Shown here piece after piece: positions 16,300-62,700 of a stretch of DNA of 64,000 nt. The DNA comes from Escherichia coli (GTDB lineage: Bacteria; Pseudomonadota; Gammaproteobacteria; Enterobacterales; Enterobacteriaceae): the NCBI RefSeq assembly GCF_002854065.1, contig NZ_CP024151.1; one strand, written 5' to 3'. The position numbers and the translations under genes are program-made. The first letter of the stretch is position 1. The number at the start of each line of letters is the position of its first letter. The notes beneath the pieces were generated by a model. The model searched no databases and was not told where the DNA came from. It saw only the letters and a list, made by a program, of their open reading frames with translations.

Positions 16300-18461
16300 C
16301 AGAAATCATCTCCCGGCTCAACATCCTCCCCACGCTCCCGGTGCACATTAATGTTCACCTCTTCACGACGCTGCATCTGCTGCTGGATGTCCGGATGATT
16401 TTCCTGTTGCCATGCCTCATAAGCGGCCATATCCACCACTTCACCGGATTCACTGATCCCGGGTGGCAGTTGCTGTTCCATCTCTTCTTCCGGTTTCATT
16501 TTCAGCTCCTGCTCGATCCCCCCTGCCGGAACATTCACACCTGAATCTGACTTCTTATCGTTTATGGCAGGAGACACCGGCTGTTGCGGCTGTTGCGGCT
16601 GTTCAGCCTGAGTCACGTCTTCTCCGGAAACAACTTCCGGCACATCCGGTTCGAAGAGGCTGGCCATCTGACGACCTTCTGCTTCCCTTGCGGCAAGTAC
16701 GGCACTCAGACGGTTCTCCATTTCCGGGTTGATGTCACGCGGAATAAACTCAGGGGCAACCTTCGGACGTGCCTGATATTTCAGTGAGAGTTTTACTGCC
16801 GGATACGGTCCGGGCAGGGTGACATAACAAGTCAGATCCGGCAGAGACTGAATGTCGGAATAACTGACCAGCGTCTGGCGCTCCATATCCTTACCGGTCG
16901 ATACCCCGTCACGTACCGGATCAGCACCGTAGGAATACTGCTCGCTGGCTTTCAGGTGCTCTTTCTCACCAATCTCACCGGCAGCGAACTCTGCAATCTT
17001 ATGGCTGGGAGAACGGAAAAAGGCACGAGTGTTCATGACGTCAAACAGCGTGGCAGCCGCTTTCTCACCGTAGATATCTTCCAGCTGGGCATAGGACTGG
17101 ATACCAAACACATAACAGCCACCGAACTTACGGGCTTCCGGCAGGATCTCCACCAGGTCCGGCAGTTTGTGTAACGTGGGTAGCTCATCACAGAAAAACC
17201 ACACACGACGGTTACGGTTTTCTCCCATTGCCAGCAGACCACGAATGGCAATGGACAGCCACATGGAGATCACCGGCTTCAGGGAGGCATGGGTGTCGGC
17301 ATTCGACGAGATAAACAGCCAGCCGTTTTTCTGATCTTCCCGGACACCCCGCATCCAGTCACGGATGGTAAAAGACTCACCGTTATGCTCAATCCCCTGC
17401 AGGTAACGGATGGCTTTCACGTAGTTGGTCAGCACAGCACGGATGGAAATCGCCGTTTTCTCAATTTTCTCTTCCACCAGGTTGGCCGCCGGTGAATTAC
17501 GCAGGAAGGTACGCAGTTTTTCGATTTTGATGGAAAGCAGTGTGTCCACCAGTTTGCTGTAGCTGCGGTTGGGGTCATTACGCATCAGGTACGCCGCTTC
17601 CGCAAAAATGGTACGTCCTGAACCCTGCCAGAACGGGTCCTCTTTTGTGCCCATCGGGATCAGAGTATTTGCGGTATTATCAAAATCCGGCTGTGTCAGG
17701 CACTCCTTCCACAAATCCCAGGCGGCACAACGGGCATCCAGCGGATTCAGGATTTTATCGATGGAGGGATCATAGTAACTTTTAACAAATTCCCCTGAAC
17801 GGTCATAAATCACCACCATATCTCCACGCTGACGGGCGTAGTTGGCCAGACGACGGATAACTTCCGACTTACCGGCCCCGACCGTGCCGTGCAGACAGAA
17901 GTTCTGGATTTCGGAATCCCGGATAATCGGCAGGTCGCCAATCCGTATATCGGAGTCCTTGCCGTCTTTTTTCAGCATCCGGGCAACGTCTTTCGGGTTC
18001 TCCGTCAGCTGACGACCACCTGTGACTTCATTTTCGCTCTGTTGTTTACCCTGACGCCCCAGAATCCAGGAGACAACAAAGAAGGTAATCAGGCAAATAA
18101 CCAGTGCCACAACTGTAGCCAGAACGAATGCGGACCATAGCTGCTCTCCGCACCAGATCATATATTTATCATGCAGTACCTGAGCAGCGTTCATCCGGAA
18201 GGTTTTGCCGTAATACTGGATCTCATAGACCGGCTGGGACTTGATTAAATCCCGCATGCCTTCCAGCGTGGTACACCACCAGTAAATACAGCCGTTCACA
18301 AACGTCTGCCAGCTTATTTTTACCCATAAAACCAGACCAACGAGTATCCAGAAAAAAATAAACAGGCAGTAAAGCATGATATTGGCGATCTGGCTGAACA
18401 TGCGGATACGCATGGACGCAATCTGACCGCCCTGGGTCATATCCTTTGCGTTAAAACTCAT
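16299..18461 (-). CDS. traD: TraD type IV coupling protein
   Basis: 720 aa; N-terminal TM segments, Walker [12 protein letters not shown]; C-terminal Q/P-rich repeat (QPQQPQQP) and acidic tail typical of F-like TraD. Confidence 0.95.
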
Positions 18462-40829: not shown

Positions 40830-41200
40830 TTTTATTTCATTTACTAATAGTTTGGTCTGAAAAAAGAAGAGCACCCCTAGCAGCGCCCCTAGGGGCATAC
40901 TATAAAAAAACGCACGGCGCTGCTAGGGGCGGCCCTAATATATCCAAATGTTTTTCATAAAATTTGTCAGTACTGACCCTAACAAGGGTCGCCATAGGGT
41001 CGCCATAGGGTCGTCAACGCCCCTATTTAATAATGTAAAATAAATTAAAATACATTATTTAAAACATAAGCTAATGATTCAAAAAGCAAATCAGCAAAAA
41101 CTTGTTTTTGCGTGGGGTGTGGTGCTTTTGGTGGTGAGAACCACCAACCTGTTGAGCCTTTTTGTGGAGTGGGTTAAATTATTTACGGATAAAGTCACCA
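40830..41200 (+). other. oriT: oriT (origin of transfer); nic predicted between 41120 and 41121 on the plus strand
   Basis: F-type nick-region sequence TTTGCGTGGGGTGT|GGTGCTTTTGGTGGTGAGAACCACCAAC on the plus strand; upstream direct repeats GGGTCGCCATAGGGTCGCCATAGGGTCG and inverted repeats GCACCCCTAGCAGCGCCCCTAGGGGC (TraM/TraY-site-like). Confidence 0.8.
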
Positions 41201-43261: not shown

Positions 43262-43885
43262 TCTGGTTTTCAGCCCCCATCATCTGTTGAGTTTCGGGAG
43301 CCGCGGTTTTGACGTTTTGCGGGGACCTGCCTTTTGTTCCCTCCGGTATTCACCATCACCTTTTTGAGAACCTTCGCCGCAAGGGGCATCACTGCCACGG
43401 CCGGAAACGACTGTCCGGGGGCAGACCGCAAAAGTTTTTGCCTGCTTTTGAGCAAAAAGTTTTGCGGGATGTGCATTTCACCCCTGGACTGGCGGAGACG
43501 GTTGTGGCTGTCTATGCCCCCGGCGACAGGGGCTTAAACAGGTGAATGGCACCGGACACAACAACGGGCAGGGACCCGCCGCAACGACGTGAAGCGCGGT
43601 TTGCGAAACGGCGTTGCCCCTTACATCCCGGCGGCCTTTTGCCGGGATGCCGGGAGCGCAGGCCACGGCGCGACAGAGGCGGCGCGACCGGAACGGTCGC
43701 TGCAAGCCCGGGGTTTTCACGCATCGGACCGTAGCGACAGCCCGAAACCGCGCCAGCGGGTTCGGCGGAGACTGGCAGGTGCGCCAGCAGCTGCCTGTCG
43801 GAGTCGGGTCTGACGACCGGATGCCGCCAGGCAGCCGGGAGCCGAAGGTGCGCCCGGCAGACAGGACAACACTGCAGTAGTCAGA
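43262..43885 (+). repeat. Dispersed leading-region repeat, copy 1 (Frpo/ssi-like candidate single-strand promoter)
   Basis: About 620 bp, roughly 98% identical to 48604..49220 by eye; GC-rich with many inverted repeats; non-coding despite multiple track ORFs on both strands. Confidence 0.6.
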
Positions 43886-44166
43886 ATCAGAGCAGGAAGA
43901 AAAAGAGAATAATCACAGGGAAGGTGATGTGATTTCTGACAGGCCATAACCAGAGAAGGCGGGGGAAAAGAACGGGCGCCGCAGGCGCGCGTTCATCCCC
44001 GTTCCTGAAGGGAAACGACCTTCCTGAAGTCAGGTTGTTCATGCCCGTACAACATCAGCAAGGAGAAAGGGGCTACCGGCGAACCAGCAGCCCCTTTATA
44101 AAGGCGCTTCAGTAGTCAGACCAGCATCAGTCCTGAAAAGGCGGGCCTGCGCCCGCCTCCAGGTTG

Positions 44167-45809: not shown

Positions 45810-47768
45810 TCAGGCGGCATCAGCCAGGTTATCGGTGCGTTCAGTGGCATCCGTCTGTGGGCGTGGTGCACACATCCAGCCAGGCACCCAGCGGTTGTCT
45901 TTCATATGGTGCTCTGCATGTTCAGCCGCATCGCCTTTCTTCATCTTCTCCGCGTCCCGTGCGGCACCGGATAGTCCTGCCTCATTCAGGGCTGCGATAA
46001 TCTGCGGCTTTTTCAGGTGTCCGAAAAAGTTTGCTTTCGTCGGCTGCCACCAGTCGCGCATGTGAAAGCCGATGGCGCTCTCCAGCGTGTCCAGCGGACT
46101 GCGTGACGTGTGACCATACTCACGGGTCTGGACACCGTGGATACTGCACGCGGTGCAGAAACTGAGCAGTGATAACAGCACCTCCTGACTGAGTGACAGG
46201 AACGTCGTCATATCCCGTGCCCATCCATCCGGCAGCAGGGCGGCAAGACGGGCTTTTTCTGCCATCATCGTCATGAATGCGGCACCTTCCTTCCCTGACG
46301 GCGCATCGCTGGTCAGCGAATAATGCTCACATTCCAGGCGGATTCTGGCGGGATTGCTGTAAGCTCCGCTGCCAAATACATTCAGACAGAGTGTCCATGC
46401 CAGAAGTGCCAGGGATTTGTCCGGCTGCTGCATCAGTGCTGCCTGGACTGCCAGCGTGCGCTCTGAGGACATTTTCGTCAGCAGTGGCAGACTGATTTCC
46501 TCCACGGAGGCTTTCTCCTGCACCTGTTCCGTGTGGTCAGCGTCGTCAGCCACATCATCCTCACTGCGTAACTGCACACCACGCTGGACACATACGTTTC
46601 CATAACGCCAGGACACCACCACGCCACTTCCGGCACGCATCTCCGGCGTCCACGCCCTGACCTTCGCCATGCAGTCAATCAGCTTCATTTCTGCTTCCAG
46701 CAGGTCGGATTCCTCACACTGGTTTTCCAGCGCATCGTAACGTGCCATCAGTTTGTTCAGGCGTTCTTCTTCTGCCTCCGTCAGCACCGCTTCCGGCTCC
46801 GGCAGACTGCGGTATGTTCCGGCATCCTCACGGCACTCACCAACGGCCTCCATGCGTCCGGCACACCATCCCCAGCCCTCGGCTTCCCGAAGGTGTTCAG
46901 CAACAGCCTGGAGTTTTTCCAGCAGGGCAGCATCGAGCGCAACACAGTCCACATAGCCACCCTCGTCGTCGCTGAACAAATCGGTGCGCAGTTCATCTGG
47001 CGAGAAGGCATCAGCCCCCACAAAGCGGAATTTAGTGTTCCCCGCCACCGCCACTTCACTTTCGGTCACCAGACGACGAATGGTCTGTACTTCCGGTTTT
47101 CCGCCCCATCCCGACTGACAGGCAGCTTCAAACACCTGCACCTGACGCGCGGTGTCGTTCTCCAGCGCCAGCGCCTGACAGTGCTCTGTGGTGATGCGGT
47201 CTTCTGCCAGCGCATCGAGGATGACAGGCGCAAGGTCTGCCAGTTTCAGCATTCGCTGAACGTGGCGGGGTGAATAGCCCAGCAAATCACCGATTTGTGC
47301 AGGCGTTTTGCCTTCCTGCGCCATTGCACGGAATCCGGCAATCTGTTCGGCAGGGTGCATATCCCGACGATGACCGTTTTCAGTCATTGATGCGGCAGTC
47401 GCCAGTTCCTGCGGAATAACCTTCACGCGGACAGGCCAGTCAGCCGGAAGGATGTTGCGCTCTGCCAGCATGTTGAGTGCTGCCAGTCGGCGACCGCCTG
47501 CGGCGACACCGTAACGGTCACCTGGCAGGGCATGAACAACCAGATTCTGCAGCAGGCCGACGCCCTTAATGGACTCTGCCAGTTCGCTGACAGACTCCGC
47601 AGAATACGGCACCGTGCGCACATTCAGCGGTGACTTAATCAGCGAGGCCAGCGGCACGCTCACTTCAGCCGTCTCCGCCAGCAGGGCCGACAGGACTGTT
47701 TCCTGCGTTTTTGCAGGTTTACGGCTGGATTTACGCTCCGTTTTTACCTTAGACTCTGTAACTGACAT
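45810..47768 (-). CDS. Large ParB/Srx-like nuclease-domain protein of the leading region
   Basis: About 652 aa from MSVTESKVKTERKSSRK...; N-terminal ParB-like region (..GLLQNLVVHALPGDRYGVAAGGRRLAAL..); SD AAGGAG before ATG at 47768. Confidence 0.8.
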   Translation of the reverse strand: MSVTESKVKTERKSSRKPAKTQETVLSALLAETAEVSVPLASLIKSPLNVRTVPYSAESVSELAESIKGVGLLQNLVVHALPGDRYGVAAGGRRLAALNMLAERNILPADWPVRVKVIPQELATAASMTENGHRRDMHPAEQIAGFRAMAQEGKTPAQIGDLLGYSPRHVQRMLKLADLAPVILDALAEDRITTEHCQALALENDTARQVQVFEAACQSGWGGKPEVQTIRRLVTESEVAVAGNTKFRFVGADAFSPDELRTDLFSDDEGGYVDCVALDAALLEKLQAVAEHLREAEGWGWCAGRMEAVGECREDAGTYRSLPEPEAVLTEAEEERLNKLMARYDALENQCEESDLLEAEMKLIDCMAKVRAWTPEMRAGSGVVVSWRYGNVCVQRGVQLRSEDDVADDADHTEQVQEKASVEEISLPLLTKMSSERTLAVQAALMQQPDKSLALLAWTLCLNVFGSGAYSNPARIRLECEHYSLTSDAPSGKEGAAFMTMMAEKARLAALLPDGWARDMTTFLSLSQEVLLSLLSFCTACSIHGVQTREYGHTSRSPLDTLESAIGFHMRDWWQPTKANFFGHLKKPQIIAALNEAGLSGAARDAEKMKKGDAAEHAEHHMKDNRWVPGWMCAPRPQTDATERTDNLADAA

Positions 47769-47832: not shown

Positions 47833-48580
<748 letters not shown>

Positions 48581-48603
48581 GATGTGCCTCCTTCTGTTGA
48601 TGT

Positions 48604-49220
48604 TTTCAGCCCCCATCATCTTTTGAGTTTCGGGAGCCGCGGTTTTGACGTTTTGCGGGGACCTGCCTTTTGTTCCCTCCGGTATTCACCATCACCTTTT
48701 TGAGAACCTTCGCCGCAAGGGGCATCACTGCCACGGACGGAAACGACTGTCCGGGGGCAGACCGCAAAAGTTTTTGCCTGCTTTTGGGCAAAAAGTTTTG
48801 CGGGATGTACATTTCACCCCTGGACTGGCGGAGACGGTTGTGGCTGTCTTTGCCCCCGGCGACAGGGGCTTAAACAGGTGAATGGCACCGGACAGAACAA
48901 CGGGCAGGGACCCGCCGCAACGACGTGAAGCGCGGTTTGCGAAACGGCGTTGCCCCTTACATCCCGGCGGTCTTTTGCCGGGATGCCAGGAGCGCAGGCC
49001 ACGGCGCGACAGAGGCGGCGCGACCGGAACGGTCGCTGCAAGCCAGGGGTTTTCACGCATCGGACCGTAGCGACAGCCCGAAACCGCGCCAGCGGGTTCG
49101 GCGGAGACTGGCAGGTGCGCCAGCAGCTGCCTGTCGGAGTCGGGCCTGACGACCGGATGCCGCCAGGCAGCCGGGAGCCGAAGGTGCGCCCGGCAGACAG
49201 GACAACACTGCAGTAGTCAG
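48604..49220 (+). repeat. Dispersed leading-region repeat, copy 2 (Frpo/ssi-like), upstream of ssb
   Basis: Near-identical to copy 1; immediately 5' (in minus-sense) of ssb, the classical position of the F Frpo element. Confidence 0.6.
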
Positions 49221-49246
49221 AATCAGAGCAGCAGGAAAAAGAAGAA

Positions 49247-49294
49247 CAGTAGCAGTAGCAGTAGCAGTAGCAGTAGCAGTAGCAGTAGCAGTAG
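49247..49294. repeat. Hexanucleotide microsatellite (CAGTAG)x8
   Basis: Perfect tandem array adjacent to repeat copy 2; the homologous positions after copies 1 and 3 lack the array. Confidence 0.9.
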
Positions 49295-49472
49295 CAGGAA
49301 CAACAACATCAGTAACAGACAAATGACAGGCATGAAGAAACAGAAGCCCCCATCAGAACGTCCGCGTAATGAAAGGGGCGGCGCGTGAGCGCGGCCCCTT
49401 TCAGCACCACCGGCGCGCGTTTTTTCCCGGCGCGGGCAGACAGGCATTTATCCTCCCGCCGGCCCTGTGTCA

Positions 49473-50036
49473 TCAGGCACGCAGACGAATAATCATCGTC
49501 GGGACATCGGTATAAGCAAACGTGCCGCGCGGCAGCTCCTCGCGGACGTCAGAAAACGGTAACAGCTTCTCCTGCTGGCGTGGTCCGTTGAGACAGACGG
49601 CGACCAGCACGCCACCCGGACGCAACAGGGAAAAGGCCCGCAGGATATGCCGGATATCCTGCCCGTGGCTGAACGGCGGATTCATGATAACCCGGCTGTA
49701 ATACTGCACCGGCTGCCATTCCATGAAGTCGCCACACTGAACCCTGACACCGTTAAAATTTTCCCGCAGATACCGGACCAGCCCGCTGTTGATTTCCACC
49801 GCATCACACATGGCCCCCGGCGCGGTATCCCGAATCGCCCGCAGTATGGCCCCGGTGCCGGCAGAGGGTTCCAGAATGTGATCACGGTTGCTGATCTCCG
49901 CCAGCATCACCAGGCGATCACAGACCGGGGCAGGAGTCACAAAAAGCTGAGATTCAGCCCGGATTTCAGCAACCGGCGCGGCGTTATCCAGCCTTGCGCG
50001 CATCAGCCGGATACGTTCTCTTAACTGACTGTGCAT
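49473..50036 (-). CDS. Small class I SAM-dependent methyltransferase (N6-adenine/N4-cytosine-type motifs)
   Basis: 187 aa; motif I ILEPSAGTGAI and motif IV VIMNPPF; substrate (DNA, RNA or protein) cannot be decided from sequence. Confidence 0.7.
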   Translation of the reverse strand: MHSQLRERIRLMRARLDNAAPVAEIRAESQLFVTPAPVCDRLVMLAEISNRDHILEPSAGTGAILRAIRDTAPGAMCDAVEINSGLVRYLRENFNGVRVQCGDFMEWQPVQYYSRVIMNPPFSHGQDIRHILRAFSLLRPGGVLVAVCLNGPRQQEKLLPFSDVREELPRGTFAYTDVPTMIIRLRA

Positions 50037-51496: not shown

Positions 51497-51727
51497 TCAG
51501 TTAAAAGCGCGTTTCAGTTCGAGTGTGCGGAGCACCTGCCCGAAGGCCGTGTTTTTCATGGCGGGGATGTGTACACCACGCCCCCGGTGAAAACTCCGGG
51601 CAATGTGTCGCCCGAAGGCTTTCAGCACGGGGTCAATTTCCGGCGCGGGGATGTCTTCGCGTCTGAAACGGGGATGACGGCGGGGCTTTACAGCCGCTGC
51701 GGAAGGTGAAACAATACTTACTGTCAT
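51497..51727 (-). CDS. Hypothetical small basic protein, 76 aa
   Basis: First ORF downstream (minus-sense) of repeat copy 3; Arg/Lys-rich. Confidence 0.45.
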   Translation of the reverse strand: MTVSIVSPSAAAVKPRRHPRFRREDIPAPEIDPVLKAFGRHIARSFHRGRGVHIPAMKNTAFGQVLRTLELKRAFN

Positions 51728-51964
51728 AAATGAAACTCCTTATGACAAATTGGTTAACAATGCCGTCAAAATTGGTTGTGCAATTCTTACGGCGTGGATT
51801 AAGCAGGTCCCTGACCTGCTTTTTTCATATCTGCGTCTGACGTTCTACGGTGTTTTCCTCCTTCTGTTCCTGCGTTCTCATTACCTGCCAGCCGGATGAC
51901 TGACAGAACAAATAAATGCATATTGCCGGAGCCTGAAATAAATCCTGATTTTTAAAGAACATCA

Positions 51965-52575
51965 CCCGTTGAGTTTCGGGAGCCGCGGTTTTGACGTTTC
52001 GCGGGAACCTGCTGCTGTATTCCCTGTGGTATGAACTTCACCCGTTTGAGAACCTTCGCCGCAAGGGGCATCACTGCCACGGCCTGACGCACCTGTCCTG
52101 GGCAGAACGCAAAATTTTTTACCGGGTTTTGGGTAAAAAATTTTGTGGGCTGTTCATTTACCCTGGACAGTCAGTGCGGCAGGTTGTGGCTGTATCAGCC
52201 CCCGGCGACAGGGACTCATACGGGTGTGTGGCACCGGCAGGCAATGAGCAGGGACCCGCCGCAACGACGGAGAGCGCGTGCGCGAAACGGCGTTGCCCCT
52301 TACATCCCGGCGGCCTTTTGCCGGGATGCCGGGAGCGCAGGCCACGGCGCGACAAGGGTGGCGCGACCGGAACGGTCGCTGCAAGCCCGGGGTTTTCACG
52401 CATCGGACCGTAGCGACAGCCCGAAACCGCGCCAGCGGGTTCGGCGGAGACTGGCGGGTGCGCCAGCAGCTGCCTGTCGGAGTCGGGCCTGACGACCGGA
52501 TGCCGCCAGGCAGCCGGGAGCCGAAGGTGCGCCCGGCAGACAGAACAACACTGCAGTAGTCAGAATCAGAGCAGC
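51965..52575 (+). repeat. Dispersed leading-region repeat, copy 3 (Frpo/ssi-like), 5' half diverged
   Basis: 3' about 330 bp near-identical to copies 1 and 2 (CCCGCCGCAACGAC...GCAGTAGTCAGAATCAGAGCAG); 5' half recognisably related but diverged. Confidence 0.6.
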
Positions 52576-52764
52576 AGATAAAGGAACAACAACATCAGGA
52601 ACAGTTCCATAACATAAGAAAGAAACACTCCTGAGTCAGACACATCACAGACGGGAAGGGTAACGGGCGACGCGCCAGCGTGGCCCGCTTCCCTTCCGGC
52701 AGGCGTCAGCCTGCCAGGGGTTTTCGCGCGGACTGACAGGCGGCCTCCACCGCCTGCCCCTGTA

Positions 52765-52956: not shown

Positions 52957-53387
52957 GACATCGTCTCCCCGTCCAGCGCCTGTAACACAACGTCCATTGC
53001 TTCGCGTTCCTCCCTGACGAATGCGTCACCGTCGCCCCCGTTCTCACTCCCGACGGCATACAGGCGCTTCATTTCACTGCCTGCCAGCGCCATCACTTTT
53101 TCCAGCATCACCGCCGGGACTGTCACCTGACGGCTGGCGCGCTTTTCTTCCATCAGTTCATGAACAACGCCGTGAACAACGCCGTGAACAACGCTGACAT
53201 CCGCACCATATTCAAAGGCATCGTCCAGCCGCTGCATGACGGTTTCCAGCTCATCGTCTGTCAGACTCCAGTCCTGGGCTATGTGACGCACATCCCCACG
53301 GGTCAGCACCACGGCAAAAACGCATTCACTGTCCGGCACGTCTGTATCCAGCACTTCGCGGATAATTTCTTTAACAGTACAGTACAT
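52953..53387 (-). CDS. Hypothetical acidic protein, 144 aa (paralogue A)
   Basis: Shares ends and central motif (RQVTVPA) with the 55103..55537 product; SD AAGGAG before ATG 53387; contains an in-frame 12-bp x3 tandem repeat. Confidence 0.65.
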   Translation of the reverse strand: MYCTVKEIIREVLDTDVPDSECVFAVVLTRGDVRHIAQDWSLTDDELETVMQRLDDAFEYGADVSVVHGVVHGVVHELMEEKRASRQVTVPAVMLEKVMALAGSEMKRLYAVGSENGGDGDAFVREEREAMDVVLQALDGETMS

Positions 53388-53859: not shown

Positions 53860-54275
53860 GATGTTTTCCTCCGTTGTTCACATATTCCGCGACACCGGGC
53901 GGTGCCGTGCCTCCATAAAAGCCGGGCGAACAGGCGGGGATGCAGGGGCGCAAGGGAAGCCGCAGCCTGACGCACACGGCTGACGGGAGTTGCAGGGTGA
54001 GACCGCGAAATCTGAGCGGGTGAACGACCGGAAAATCACGGCAGACGGGAAGGAGGGACCGGGTGACCGCAGCGGCGAAGCGTACCCTTGCATCAACGCC
54101 AGCCCGGCTAAGATGGAGGCACGGCACAGCCCGCACACGACGCTGAGGCCACATAACTGAAAAACCACAAGGCCATGCCCTGCATGGCCGGGTAAAGCGG
54201 AGCCGGCGGCGACTTCCTTTGTGCTCTGTCCGGGGACCGGCAGGAAAAAGGCGGGGATTTACCCCGCCAGTGTCA

Positions 54276-57768: not shown

Positions 57769-58122
57769 GGGAATTCTCCTCTCACATGCGGCCTCTATCA
57801 GGCCGTGCCGCACCTGTAACCGGGCGACCGCATACGAATGCAGGTGCGGCCCCGAAGCCGCAGCGCGTGGAGGAGGAACGACGAAACGTGACCGGGTGAG
57901 GAGGCCGGCGACAGCGACACACTTGCATCGGATGCAGCCCGGTTAACGTGCCGGCACGGCCTGGGTAACCAGGTATTTTATTCACAGAACCGTGCGCAAA
58001 ATGCTGTGGATAAGCTGGACACAGCAGTCCACAGCAGGCATACAGCCACACCCTCAGAGAATTGAGCGTTTTTTAGTCACAATAATGACATTTGACTGTG
58101 TGTGGATTCAGTTATTAGAATG

Positions 58123-62639: not shown

Positions 62640-62700
62640 GTTATTACTTATGAAATCACACTTATGAAATCACACTTGTGAATTCACACTGTTTAAGCAC
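62640..62700. repeat. Direct repeats downstream of the parAB-like operon (candidate second centromere site)
   Basis: CTTATGAAATCACACTTATGAAATCACACTTGTGAATTCACACT: three copies of a roughly 12-bp unit; the same TGAAATCACA motif occurs in the 61488..61715 region. Confidence 0.5.

Follow-up and report, generated by a model that had tools for sequence, protein, structure and literature searches.

Frpo, one of the class-1 ssDNA promoters that Masai and Arai reportedly described in 1997, is said to be 328 nt long. Leading genes are transcribed in the recipient from the incoming single strand, and in the F plasmid Frpo2 drives ssb in vivo, with its deletion abolishing early ssb expression (PMC9849209). 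The class-1 promoters of the IncI1 plasmid ColIb-P9 are known from 5' RACE mapping in a relative (PMC12672017). Plasmids of this kind also supply typing markers. VNTR-37, or O157-37, is a plasmid-borne locus of the standard E. coli O157:H7 MLVA scheme, according to Keys 2005 and Hyytia-Trees 2006 as these are cited in PMC3321953 and PMC3768571. Among 202 isolates the pO157 locus had 3-17 repeats and 11 alleles, with a diversity index of 0.82 (PMC3321953), and two slippage events (4.3e-5) were recorded during parallel serial passage (PMC3777172). STTR10pl, a Salmonella Typhimurium MLVA locus, is intergenic between PSLT064 and ssbB on pSLT (PMC6459517). The subject of the present analysis was a CAGTAG array in a 64-kb stretch of plasmid DNA (the window, to which positions refer unless another record is named). 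The reading that best explained the data, at a probability of roughly 0.75, was that this array is a slippage-prone and probably neutral VNTR, the same as VNTR-37/O157-37, in the non-coding spacer between two operons of an IncF leading region.

The window contains the leading region of a conjugative IncFIA/FIB/FIC plasmid. Gene names were taken from the annotation of plasmid pDETEC81, which was 100% identical over the region; the order was traM, oriT and an SLT transglycosylase gene, followed on the minus strand by DUF932, hok, psiB, parB-like, DUF905, ssb, methyltransferase, DUF3560, antirestriction and DNA methylase genes. Tandem Repeats Finder (TRF) reported (CAGTAG)8.5 at 49247-49297, with a period of 6, 100% matches, no indels and a score of 102, the highest of any tandem repeat in the window. 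The assignment was supported by the sequence itself and by comparison with pO157, and on the minus strand the array reads (CTACTG)n. Eight whole units occupy 49247-49294 and a partial CAG comes next, which bore out the 48-bp perfect (CAGTAG)x8 array of the original prediction. Within the window the 18-mer (CAGTAG)3 was confined to this array, and it had matches in none of 100 dinucleotide-preserving shuffles. The coordinates and the pDETEC81 annotation also agreed with the predicted location between a 187-aa methyltransferase gene and the second copy of a repeat. This gene, for a class I SAM-dependent methyltransferase (49473-50036, minus strand; pDETEC81 annotation and coding signature), is the last of the upstream operon and its stop codon is 176 nt from the array. 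The ssb gene (48128-48580, minus strand; pDETEC81 annotation) is the first gene downstream of a Frpo2-type element.

That element is part of a direct repeat of approximately 640 bp, three copies of which were found (43266-43902, 48602-49238 and 51948-52581), every one closed by CAGTAGTCAGAATCAGAGC (at 43875, 49211 and 52554). A long hairpin was located at about 48627-48955 in the ssDNA fold of the plus strand from 48580 to 49480 (z = -10 compared to shuffles), and copy 2 was 90-97% identical to F Frpo2/Frpo1 over about 450-490 nt. On the basis of this fold, a size matching that of the 328-nt Frpo, and the sequence identity, copy 2 (plus strand) was assigned to the class-1 ssDNA promoters as a Frpo2-type unit upstream of ssb, and Frpo1 is the counterpart of copy 1. 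BLAST analysis of the hairpin returned at least 5,000 records, on IncF plasmids. Copy 3 precedes an operon consisting of a 76-aa ORF, DUF3560 and the methyltransferase gene, and the array is at the end of this operon, about 10 nt from the copy-2 unit and on its upstream side with respect to transcription. Since the leading genes are on the minus strand and such genes are known to be transcribed from the incoming strand, we infer that the plus strand of the window is the transferred (T) strand.

At the junction after copy 1 (43875-43960) the same terminal motif and a purine-rich tract were present and the array was absent, and the junction after copy 3 (52554-52640) had the terminal motif and the homologous AAGGAACAACAACATCAG flank with zero CAGTAG units. 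The proposal that the array is found at only one of the three junctions was therefore correct for this plasmid, with TRF detecting none at the other two, but it did not hold as a rule, since metagenome contig L068 has two. On this contig (1-6257) the methyltransferase-DUF3560-Frpo-array module was present twice in tandem, 3,334 bp apart and with n = 6 in both; there are two arrays because the whole module is duplicated. Recombination between Frpo copies could have produced this duplication, unless it was introduced during assembly.

The left flank, CAGCAGGAAAAAGAAGAA (49229-49246), is a cryptically simple purine-rich seed that extends from the repeat end to the array. Adjoining the array at 49295-49306 is a second small variable tract, CAGGAA(CAA)m(CAT), in which m = 2 and CAT is absent in the window; m ranged from 0 to 4 in other plasmids. 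The variants of this tract in the metagenome junctions, among the matches listed, were CAGGAACAACAACAT (68), CAGGAACAACAA (30) and others. The conserved right flank CATCAGTAACAGACAAATGACAGG (49307-49330) served as the anchor for the metagenome scan.

Several other features of the window were recorded. The GC-rich half of the repeat, located upstream of the Frpo hairpin (48939-49238, with counterparts at 43603-43902 and 52282-52581), was 97-98% identical among the three copies; the hairpin half was less conserved, and in copy 3 was just 67% identical. The GC-rich segment was recognisable upstream of ssb in ColIb-P9 (record L129, 27745-27990), and its sole annotation consists of overlapping 'hypothetical proteins'. 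In Rfam, AS-pc01 (RF02875, 'antisense to pHK01_035') was matched at 51722-51824 (+) with 91 bits, which exceeds the gathering score; the match is antisense to the beginning of the 76-aa ORF that lies just downstream of repeat copy 3. Downstream of the methyltransferase stop codon, at 49372-49404, is an imperfect hairpin rich in GC, AAAGGGGCGGCGCGTGAGCGCGGCCCCTTT. It has no T-run, is conserved in pO157, and could be a transcript-stabilising element or a structural element of the T-strand. Other perfect or near-perfect short tandem repeats were located at 53161-53194 (12 nt, 2.8 copies), 62646-62690 (14 nt, 3.2 copies), 40985-41013, near oriT (11 nt, 2.6 copies), and 16578-16603 (9 nt, 2.9 copies); the last of these may be the traD 9-bp VNTR mentioned for pSLT (PMC6459517).

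The position of STTR10pl upstream of ssb provided a clue to the identity of the array, and for this reason pO157, which has two plasmid MLVA loci, was examined at its ssb junction. In pO157 Sakai the genes pO157p46 (DUF3560) and pO157p47 (methyltransferase) are followed by ssb, which is the same module as in the window, and the methyltransferase-ssb interval contains (TGCTAC)7.3, equivalent to CAGTAG with a period of 6, at 46468-46511. The PulseNet VNTR-37 primers (PMC3321953) matched pO157 exactly at 46379-46405 (+) and 46526-46562 (-), flanking this array, and the alignment of the window to the pO157 junction ran through the array and the entire right flank. Judged by sequence, the array is therefore already known, as the orthologue on another IncF plasmid of the pO157 MLVA marker VNTR-37/O157-37. 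The two loci share the hexamer (CAGTAG in the window, TGCTAC on the record strand of pO157), the junction between the methyltransferase gene (the pO157p47 homologue) and the Frpo2-ssb unit of an F-type plasmid, the right flank including the forward-primer site, and a multi-allelic character with 6-bp steps. They differ in copy number (8.5 in the window, 7.3 in pO157 Sakai), in the host, which here is a conjugative IncFIA/FIB/FIC plasmid and not pO157, and in the left flank, which in pO157 is the '...GGAGAACAACAAAACAGACAGTAATCAGAGCAGC' variant of the repeat end that holds the reverse primer and that the window does not have.

The homologous site of the forward VNTR-37 primer (49356-49382, minus strand) has 2 mismatches to the published primer, and no match to the reverse primer was found in the window at up to 3 mismatches, because the repeat end in the window is of the other common type; both types of left flank were about equally frequent in the metagenome sample. 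Although orthologous, the locus on this plasmid would probably not be amplified by the standard VNTR-37 PCR. A literature search for the motif CAGTAGCAGTAG returned unrelated eukaryotic or primer matches only.

By exact matching, the 24-nt right flank was found in at least 120 stretches of metagenome contigs. The 116 scorable metagenome junctions among the matches listed had unit counts of n = 1 (12 junctions), 2 (16), 3 (14), 4 (17), 5 (18), 6 (15), 7 (14), 8 (3), 9 (4), 10 (1) and 12 (2). In this set the alleles from n = 1 to n = 7 were of fairly similar frequency and no length was favoured, in assemblies that may under-represent long alleles. Three finished plasmids with flanks matching those of the window had n = 13, 12 and 1. 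Of 13 groups of sequences that shared identical 740-nt right flanks, 10 were heterogeneous in unit count, and the array therefore changes much faster than its flanks gain substitutions; this rate, far above that of point substitution, was in agreement with the serial passage data (PMC3777172). The junction was matched in 4,221 PLSDB plasmids, 88 of which reached 99% identity, with alignment spans that differed mainly by multiples of 6 or 3. It was also present, nearly always plasmid-borne, in 2,753 of 5,426 complete E. coli genomes (121 of 3,122 junction records reached 99% identity). Lengths in finished genomes were inferred from these alignment spans and the three plasmid sequences. The O157-37 locus is thus not specific to pO157; about half of complete E. 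coli genomes have it, on IncF plasmids.

These results supported the original prediction that the array changes length by slipped-strand mispairing, since n ranged from 1 to 13, most groups with identical flanks were heterogeneous, and the pO157 literature agreed. Invariance of array length among related plasmids, the outcome that the prediction had named as contrary to it, was not seen. An alternative source of the variation would be the assembly or sequencing of a low-complexity region, and 3 of about 120 metagenome junctions did have odd 1-2-nt irregularities inside the array that resembled assembly errors. Clean 6-bp steps were nevertheless observed in thousands of independent finished plasmids and genomes, and PCR sizing of the locus has been part of MLVA typing for two decades (PMC3321953, PMC3768571, PMC3777172). 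An artefact was therefore refuted by independent records and PCR typing, and its probability was regarded as negligible.

Annotated reading frames cross the array. A 74-aa 'hypothetical protein' (WP_016238251.1; 49223-49447, minus strand) reads it as poly-Leu and an 89-aa 'hypothetical protein' (WP_071977877.1; 49053-49322, minus strand) reads it in another frame as (Thr-Ala)n. Together with a poly-Ser reading, three mutually exclusive frames on two strands have been annotated over the array. It had been suggested that array length could act through the length of a poly-Leu micro-ORF on the minus strand. If this ORF specified a real micro-protein, its start would be coupled to the methyltransferase stop codon (TGATG) or would be an internal ATG, and translation would yield either a small peptide, tail-anchored or hydrophobic, or a leader peptide rich in Leu/Phe, with a hydrophobic segment that tracks the array in length. 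In most of the 120 homologues listed the frame ...PVICLLLM(M)LLF(L)nFFFFLLL, ending in a stop codon, was open, with 3 to 17 or more Leu residues. In many variants the start is an ATG overlapping the stop codon of the methyltransferase gene (the MTQGRRED... forms; TGATG), the common TGA stop is at the repeat edge, and junctions 1 and 3 and that of F are likewise Leu/Phe-rich in this sense.

The pattern of substitution was not that of a coding sequence. In a MAFFT alignment of 93 sequences (74 distinct), the 28 ORF codons upstream of the array had 9, 8 and 6 variable sites at codon positions 1, 2 and 3, compared to 37, 34 and 72 in the methyltransferase gene, so that the third-position excess was lacking; within the hydrophobic tract, variable sites were too few for coding to be tested formally. 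Flank substitutions to the left of the array were mostly synonymous in the Leu/Phe frame (TTC/TTT, CTG/CTA), at sites that were too few to test. The internal ATG of the poly-Leu ORF was AGA in about half of the haplotypes. The N-terminal frame shifts by 1-nt indels, varying in the 120 homologues listed between MTQGRRED... and MPVCPRRE... forms, and is broken in the window. Some variants among these homologues had lost the stop codon, giving ...FFFLMLSLLSV... extensions. The mRNA tract is pyrimidine-rich, and therefore no Shine-Dalgarno sequence is possible. No match to Pfam or NCBIfam was obtained with the two minus-strand ORFs; the plus-strand ORF of pO157 gave a sub-threshold Pfam match to SR-25 only (E = 0.0088, 16 bits compared to a cut-off of 40) and none in NCBIfam. 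Neither a conserved start with an RBS nor purifying selection, as would mark a leader peptide or small membrane protein, was found.

The existence of a micro-protein was therefore judged very unlikely, and the poly-Leu ORF lost its support as a read-out of array length. Because of the codon counts, the unstable start, frame and stop, the conflicting annotations and the absence of family matches, the ORFs were considered to be annotation artefacts: the 74-aa ORF is probably not a gene and the 89-aa ORF is probably spurious. Annotators should note that the three 'hypothetical proteins' over the array are almost certainly spurious. Although the fact that 97% of alleles keep a multiple of 3 in length would also be expected of a coding tract, and so could be held against a non-coding reading, it is explained by hexamer and trimer slippage.

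One further observation concerns how the annotation arose. The A-run at 49420-49426 (GGGAAAAAACG, in the minus-strand sense) is 1 nt shorter in the window than in many other plasmids, which breaks the longer ORF that starts at the TGATG overlap, and PGAP therefore calls the shorter 74-aa protein.

The original prediction also proposed a contingency locus that would alter the spacing between the upstream operon terminus and the ssDNA promoter. The array is about 290 nt upstream of the base of the approximately 328-nt Frpo hairpin and was predicted to be unpaired in the T-strand fold. No -35/-10-like pair or intrinsic terminator was found near it, the whole interval from the methyltransferase stop codon to the repeat gave no intrinsic terminator, and no Rfam family was detected at the array. 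Since the array is outside the hairpin, is unpaired and has no promoter hexamers, tuning of a promoter spacer is unavailable to it, and an effect on promoter spacing was not supported. The promoter-spacing idea was rejected because the array falls outside the hairpin in the ssDNA fold and there are no sigma-70-like or terminator-like sites at the array. Phase variation by frameshift was also rejected, since with a unit of 6 bp a change in length never shifts the reading frame. Neither a shift of frame nor a change in -35/-10 spacing was thus associated with array length. The part of the contingency-locus proposal that stood was hypervariable length; the functional read-out was not supported, the unit being 6 bp and placed outside the hairpin, away from any promoter hexamers.

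Comparison with other plasmids gave a consistent result. There is no CAGTAG array at F Frpo2, which has a GAAGAG-like purine tract instead, and ColIb-P9 retains the GC-rich segment with no tandem repeat at that place. Since F Frpo2 functions without the array and ColIb-P9 also does without it, the array is dispensable for the promoter, and, being outside the hairpin as well, it is not a defining part of the Frpo promoter.

The tract that holds the array (49195-49345) is purine-rich and T-poor on the plus (transferred) strand, with A 68, G 40, C 27 and T 16 of 151 nt; its purine content reached z = 3.7 in a 100-nt window and it was predicted to be unstructured. All three Frpo junctions were purine-rich and T-poor on the T-strand (z = 4.0, 3.7 and 3.1) and ranked among the strongest 100-nt windows in the 64 kb. 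The windows concerned were 43876-43975, 49219-49318 and 52568-52667. Two further purine-rich windows, 53981-54080 and 57818-57917, are seemingly upstream of the antirestriction and DNA-methylase operons and may be the junctions of class-2 and class-3 ssDNA promoters.

Based on this composition, the array could be a tunable spacer or insulator, in which pyrimidine-rich RNA or the purine-rich T-strand acts between the operons as a rut-like site of Rho loading or as a structure-free spacer. Transcripts from the methyltransferase gene would then be ended or insulated before Frpo2, and array length would grade read-through into ssb/psiB or folding of the GC-rich domain. This would fit the purine-rich T-poor tracts at the three Frpo junctions, and possibly those upstream of two other leading operons, as well as the (GAAGAG)-like tract of F Frpo2, which would give a poly(UC)-like RNA, the lack of an intrinsic terminator from the methyltransferase stop codon to the repeat, and the unpaired state of the array in the fold. 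The primary binding site of Rho, however, prefers YC dinucleotides, and (CUACUG)n RNA has none. In addition, the even spread of n = 1-7 in the metagenome junctions among the matches listed indicated no favoured length, and a comparable array is absent in ColIb-P9. A tunable spacer was accordingly considered rather unlikely.

Different simple repeats were found at the same position: CAGTAG in the window and pO157, GAACAG in pSLT, and GAAGAG-like tracts in F and at junction 3 of pO157. The tract at the upstream junction of F Frpo2 is of the GAAGAG/GAAGAA type (record L122, about 9175-9010 on the locus, reverse strand), and the junction of the third repeat copy in pO157 has an imperfect (TTC/TTCCTC)n tract (record L124, 43216-43264). 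The purine tracts and the differing repeats at Frpo junctions could be mutational, arising in unconstrained and cryptically simple sequence; the same pattern could reflect the need for an unstructured spacer or a Rho-loading tract. Taken together, the functional readings of the junction tracts were considered unlikely. A broader proposal is that simple-sequence tracts at the upstream edge of Frpo-type promoters, O157-37 and STTR10pl included, are maintained as a purine-rich, structure-free stretch of the T-strand, with a length that would be reset, in each recipient, by polymerase stalling and slippage against the neighbouring structured domain as the complementary strand is made. Plasmid lineages would thereby gain heritable but quickly adjusted levels or durations of early ssb/psiB expression, or of read-through from the anti-restriction/methylase operon upstream. 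This was thought quite unlikely to be correct. If array length did affect early expression of the leading genes, it would be a cheap natural dial on plasmid establishment; there was no indication here that it does so.

The preferred reading remains that of a slippage-prone VNTR in a non-coding spacer. The array follows the methyltransferase gene and, with respect to transcription of the leading genes, lies just upstream of the Frpo2-type unit that is proposed to drive ssb, and slipped-strand mispairing during DNA synthesis would generate its 6-bp length steps. The putative seed is a cryptically simple purine-rich tract of CAG, GAA and CAA triplets, CAGCAG-GAAAAAGAAGAA-(CAGTAG)n-CAGGAA-(CAA)m; copy 3 keeps the seed stretch with zero CAGTAG units. 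In the recipient, complementary-strand synthesis would copy the plus strand from high to low coordinates, and would therefore cross the array immediately before the GC-rich structured domain and the hairpin. More speculatively, the array would be met about 10-25 nt before the structured repeat (which ends at 49238), and stalling there would favour realignment and slippage. Hairpins of ssDNA promoters can stall complementary-strand synthesis, as has been shown for F ssp2, not for Frpo (Fraikin et al., bioRxiv 10.64898/2026.01.09.698686).

From these results we infer that array length is nearly neutral with respect to selection and does not act as a switch, and the even allele spread from 1 to 7 in the metagenome junctions among the matches listed is consistent with near-neutral length. 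The recurrence of purine tracts and of different hexamers at the same place could argue against neutrality, by pointing to a constraint on composition rather than to a mutational accident. As it stands, the array is a routine epidemiological marker and reveals no new mechanism.

In common with the contingency loci of Haemophilus, Neisseria and Campylobacter, this locus consists of short tandem repeats in which slippage is far faster than point substitution. The units of those loci are non-multiples of 3 inside ORFs, or are located between -35 and -10 hexamers, and it is because of this unit size or placement that a change in length switches expression there. Here, in contrast, the unit is 6 bp and the array is in a non-coding spacer, about 290 nt from the promoter hairpin, where no switchable target was found. 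With respect to the Frpo/class-1 ssDNA promoters of IncF and IncI1 leading regions (PMC9849209; PMC12672017), the array directly adjoins a Frpo2-type unit on its upstream side.

The closest parallel in position is STTR10pl. In pSLT the PSLT064-ssb interval contains (CCTGTT)10.2, or GAACAG on the T-strand (record L123, 13706-13766), directly upstream of a Frpo-like element. Like the array in the window, it is carried by an IncF plasmid, is a VNTR with a 6-bp unit and is situated just upstream of a Frpo-like element in front of the plasmid ssb gene; it is likewise purine-rich on the transferred strand and reads as Leu/Phe in the gene sense. It differs in its unit, which is GAACAG (CCTGTT) and not CAGTAG, and in the upstream gene, which is PSLT064 and not the methyltransferase gene; furthermore, the pSLT flanks could not be aligned outside the Frpo-like unit. 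From these comparisons STTR10pl is a positional analogue and not the same array. In the literature searched, no paper was found that connected MLVA loci to ssb or to the leading region of plasmids. The new element in the present analysis is the placement of the array beside a Frpo2-type promoter, together with the positional equivalence of O157-37 and STTR10pl, two markers that were developed independently.
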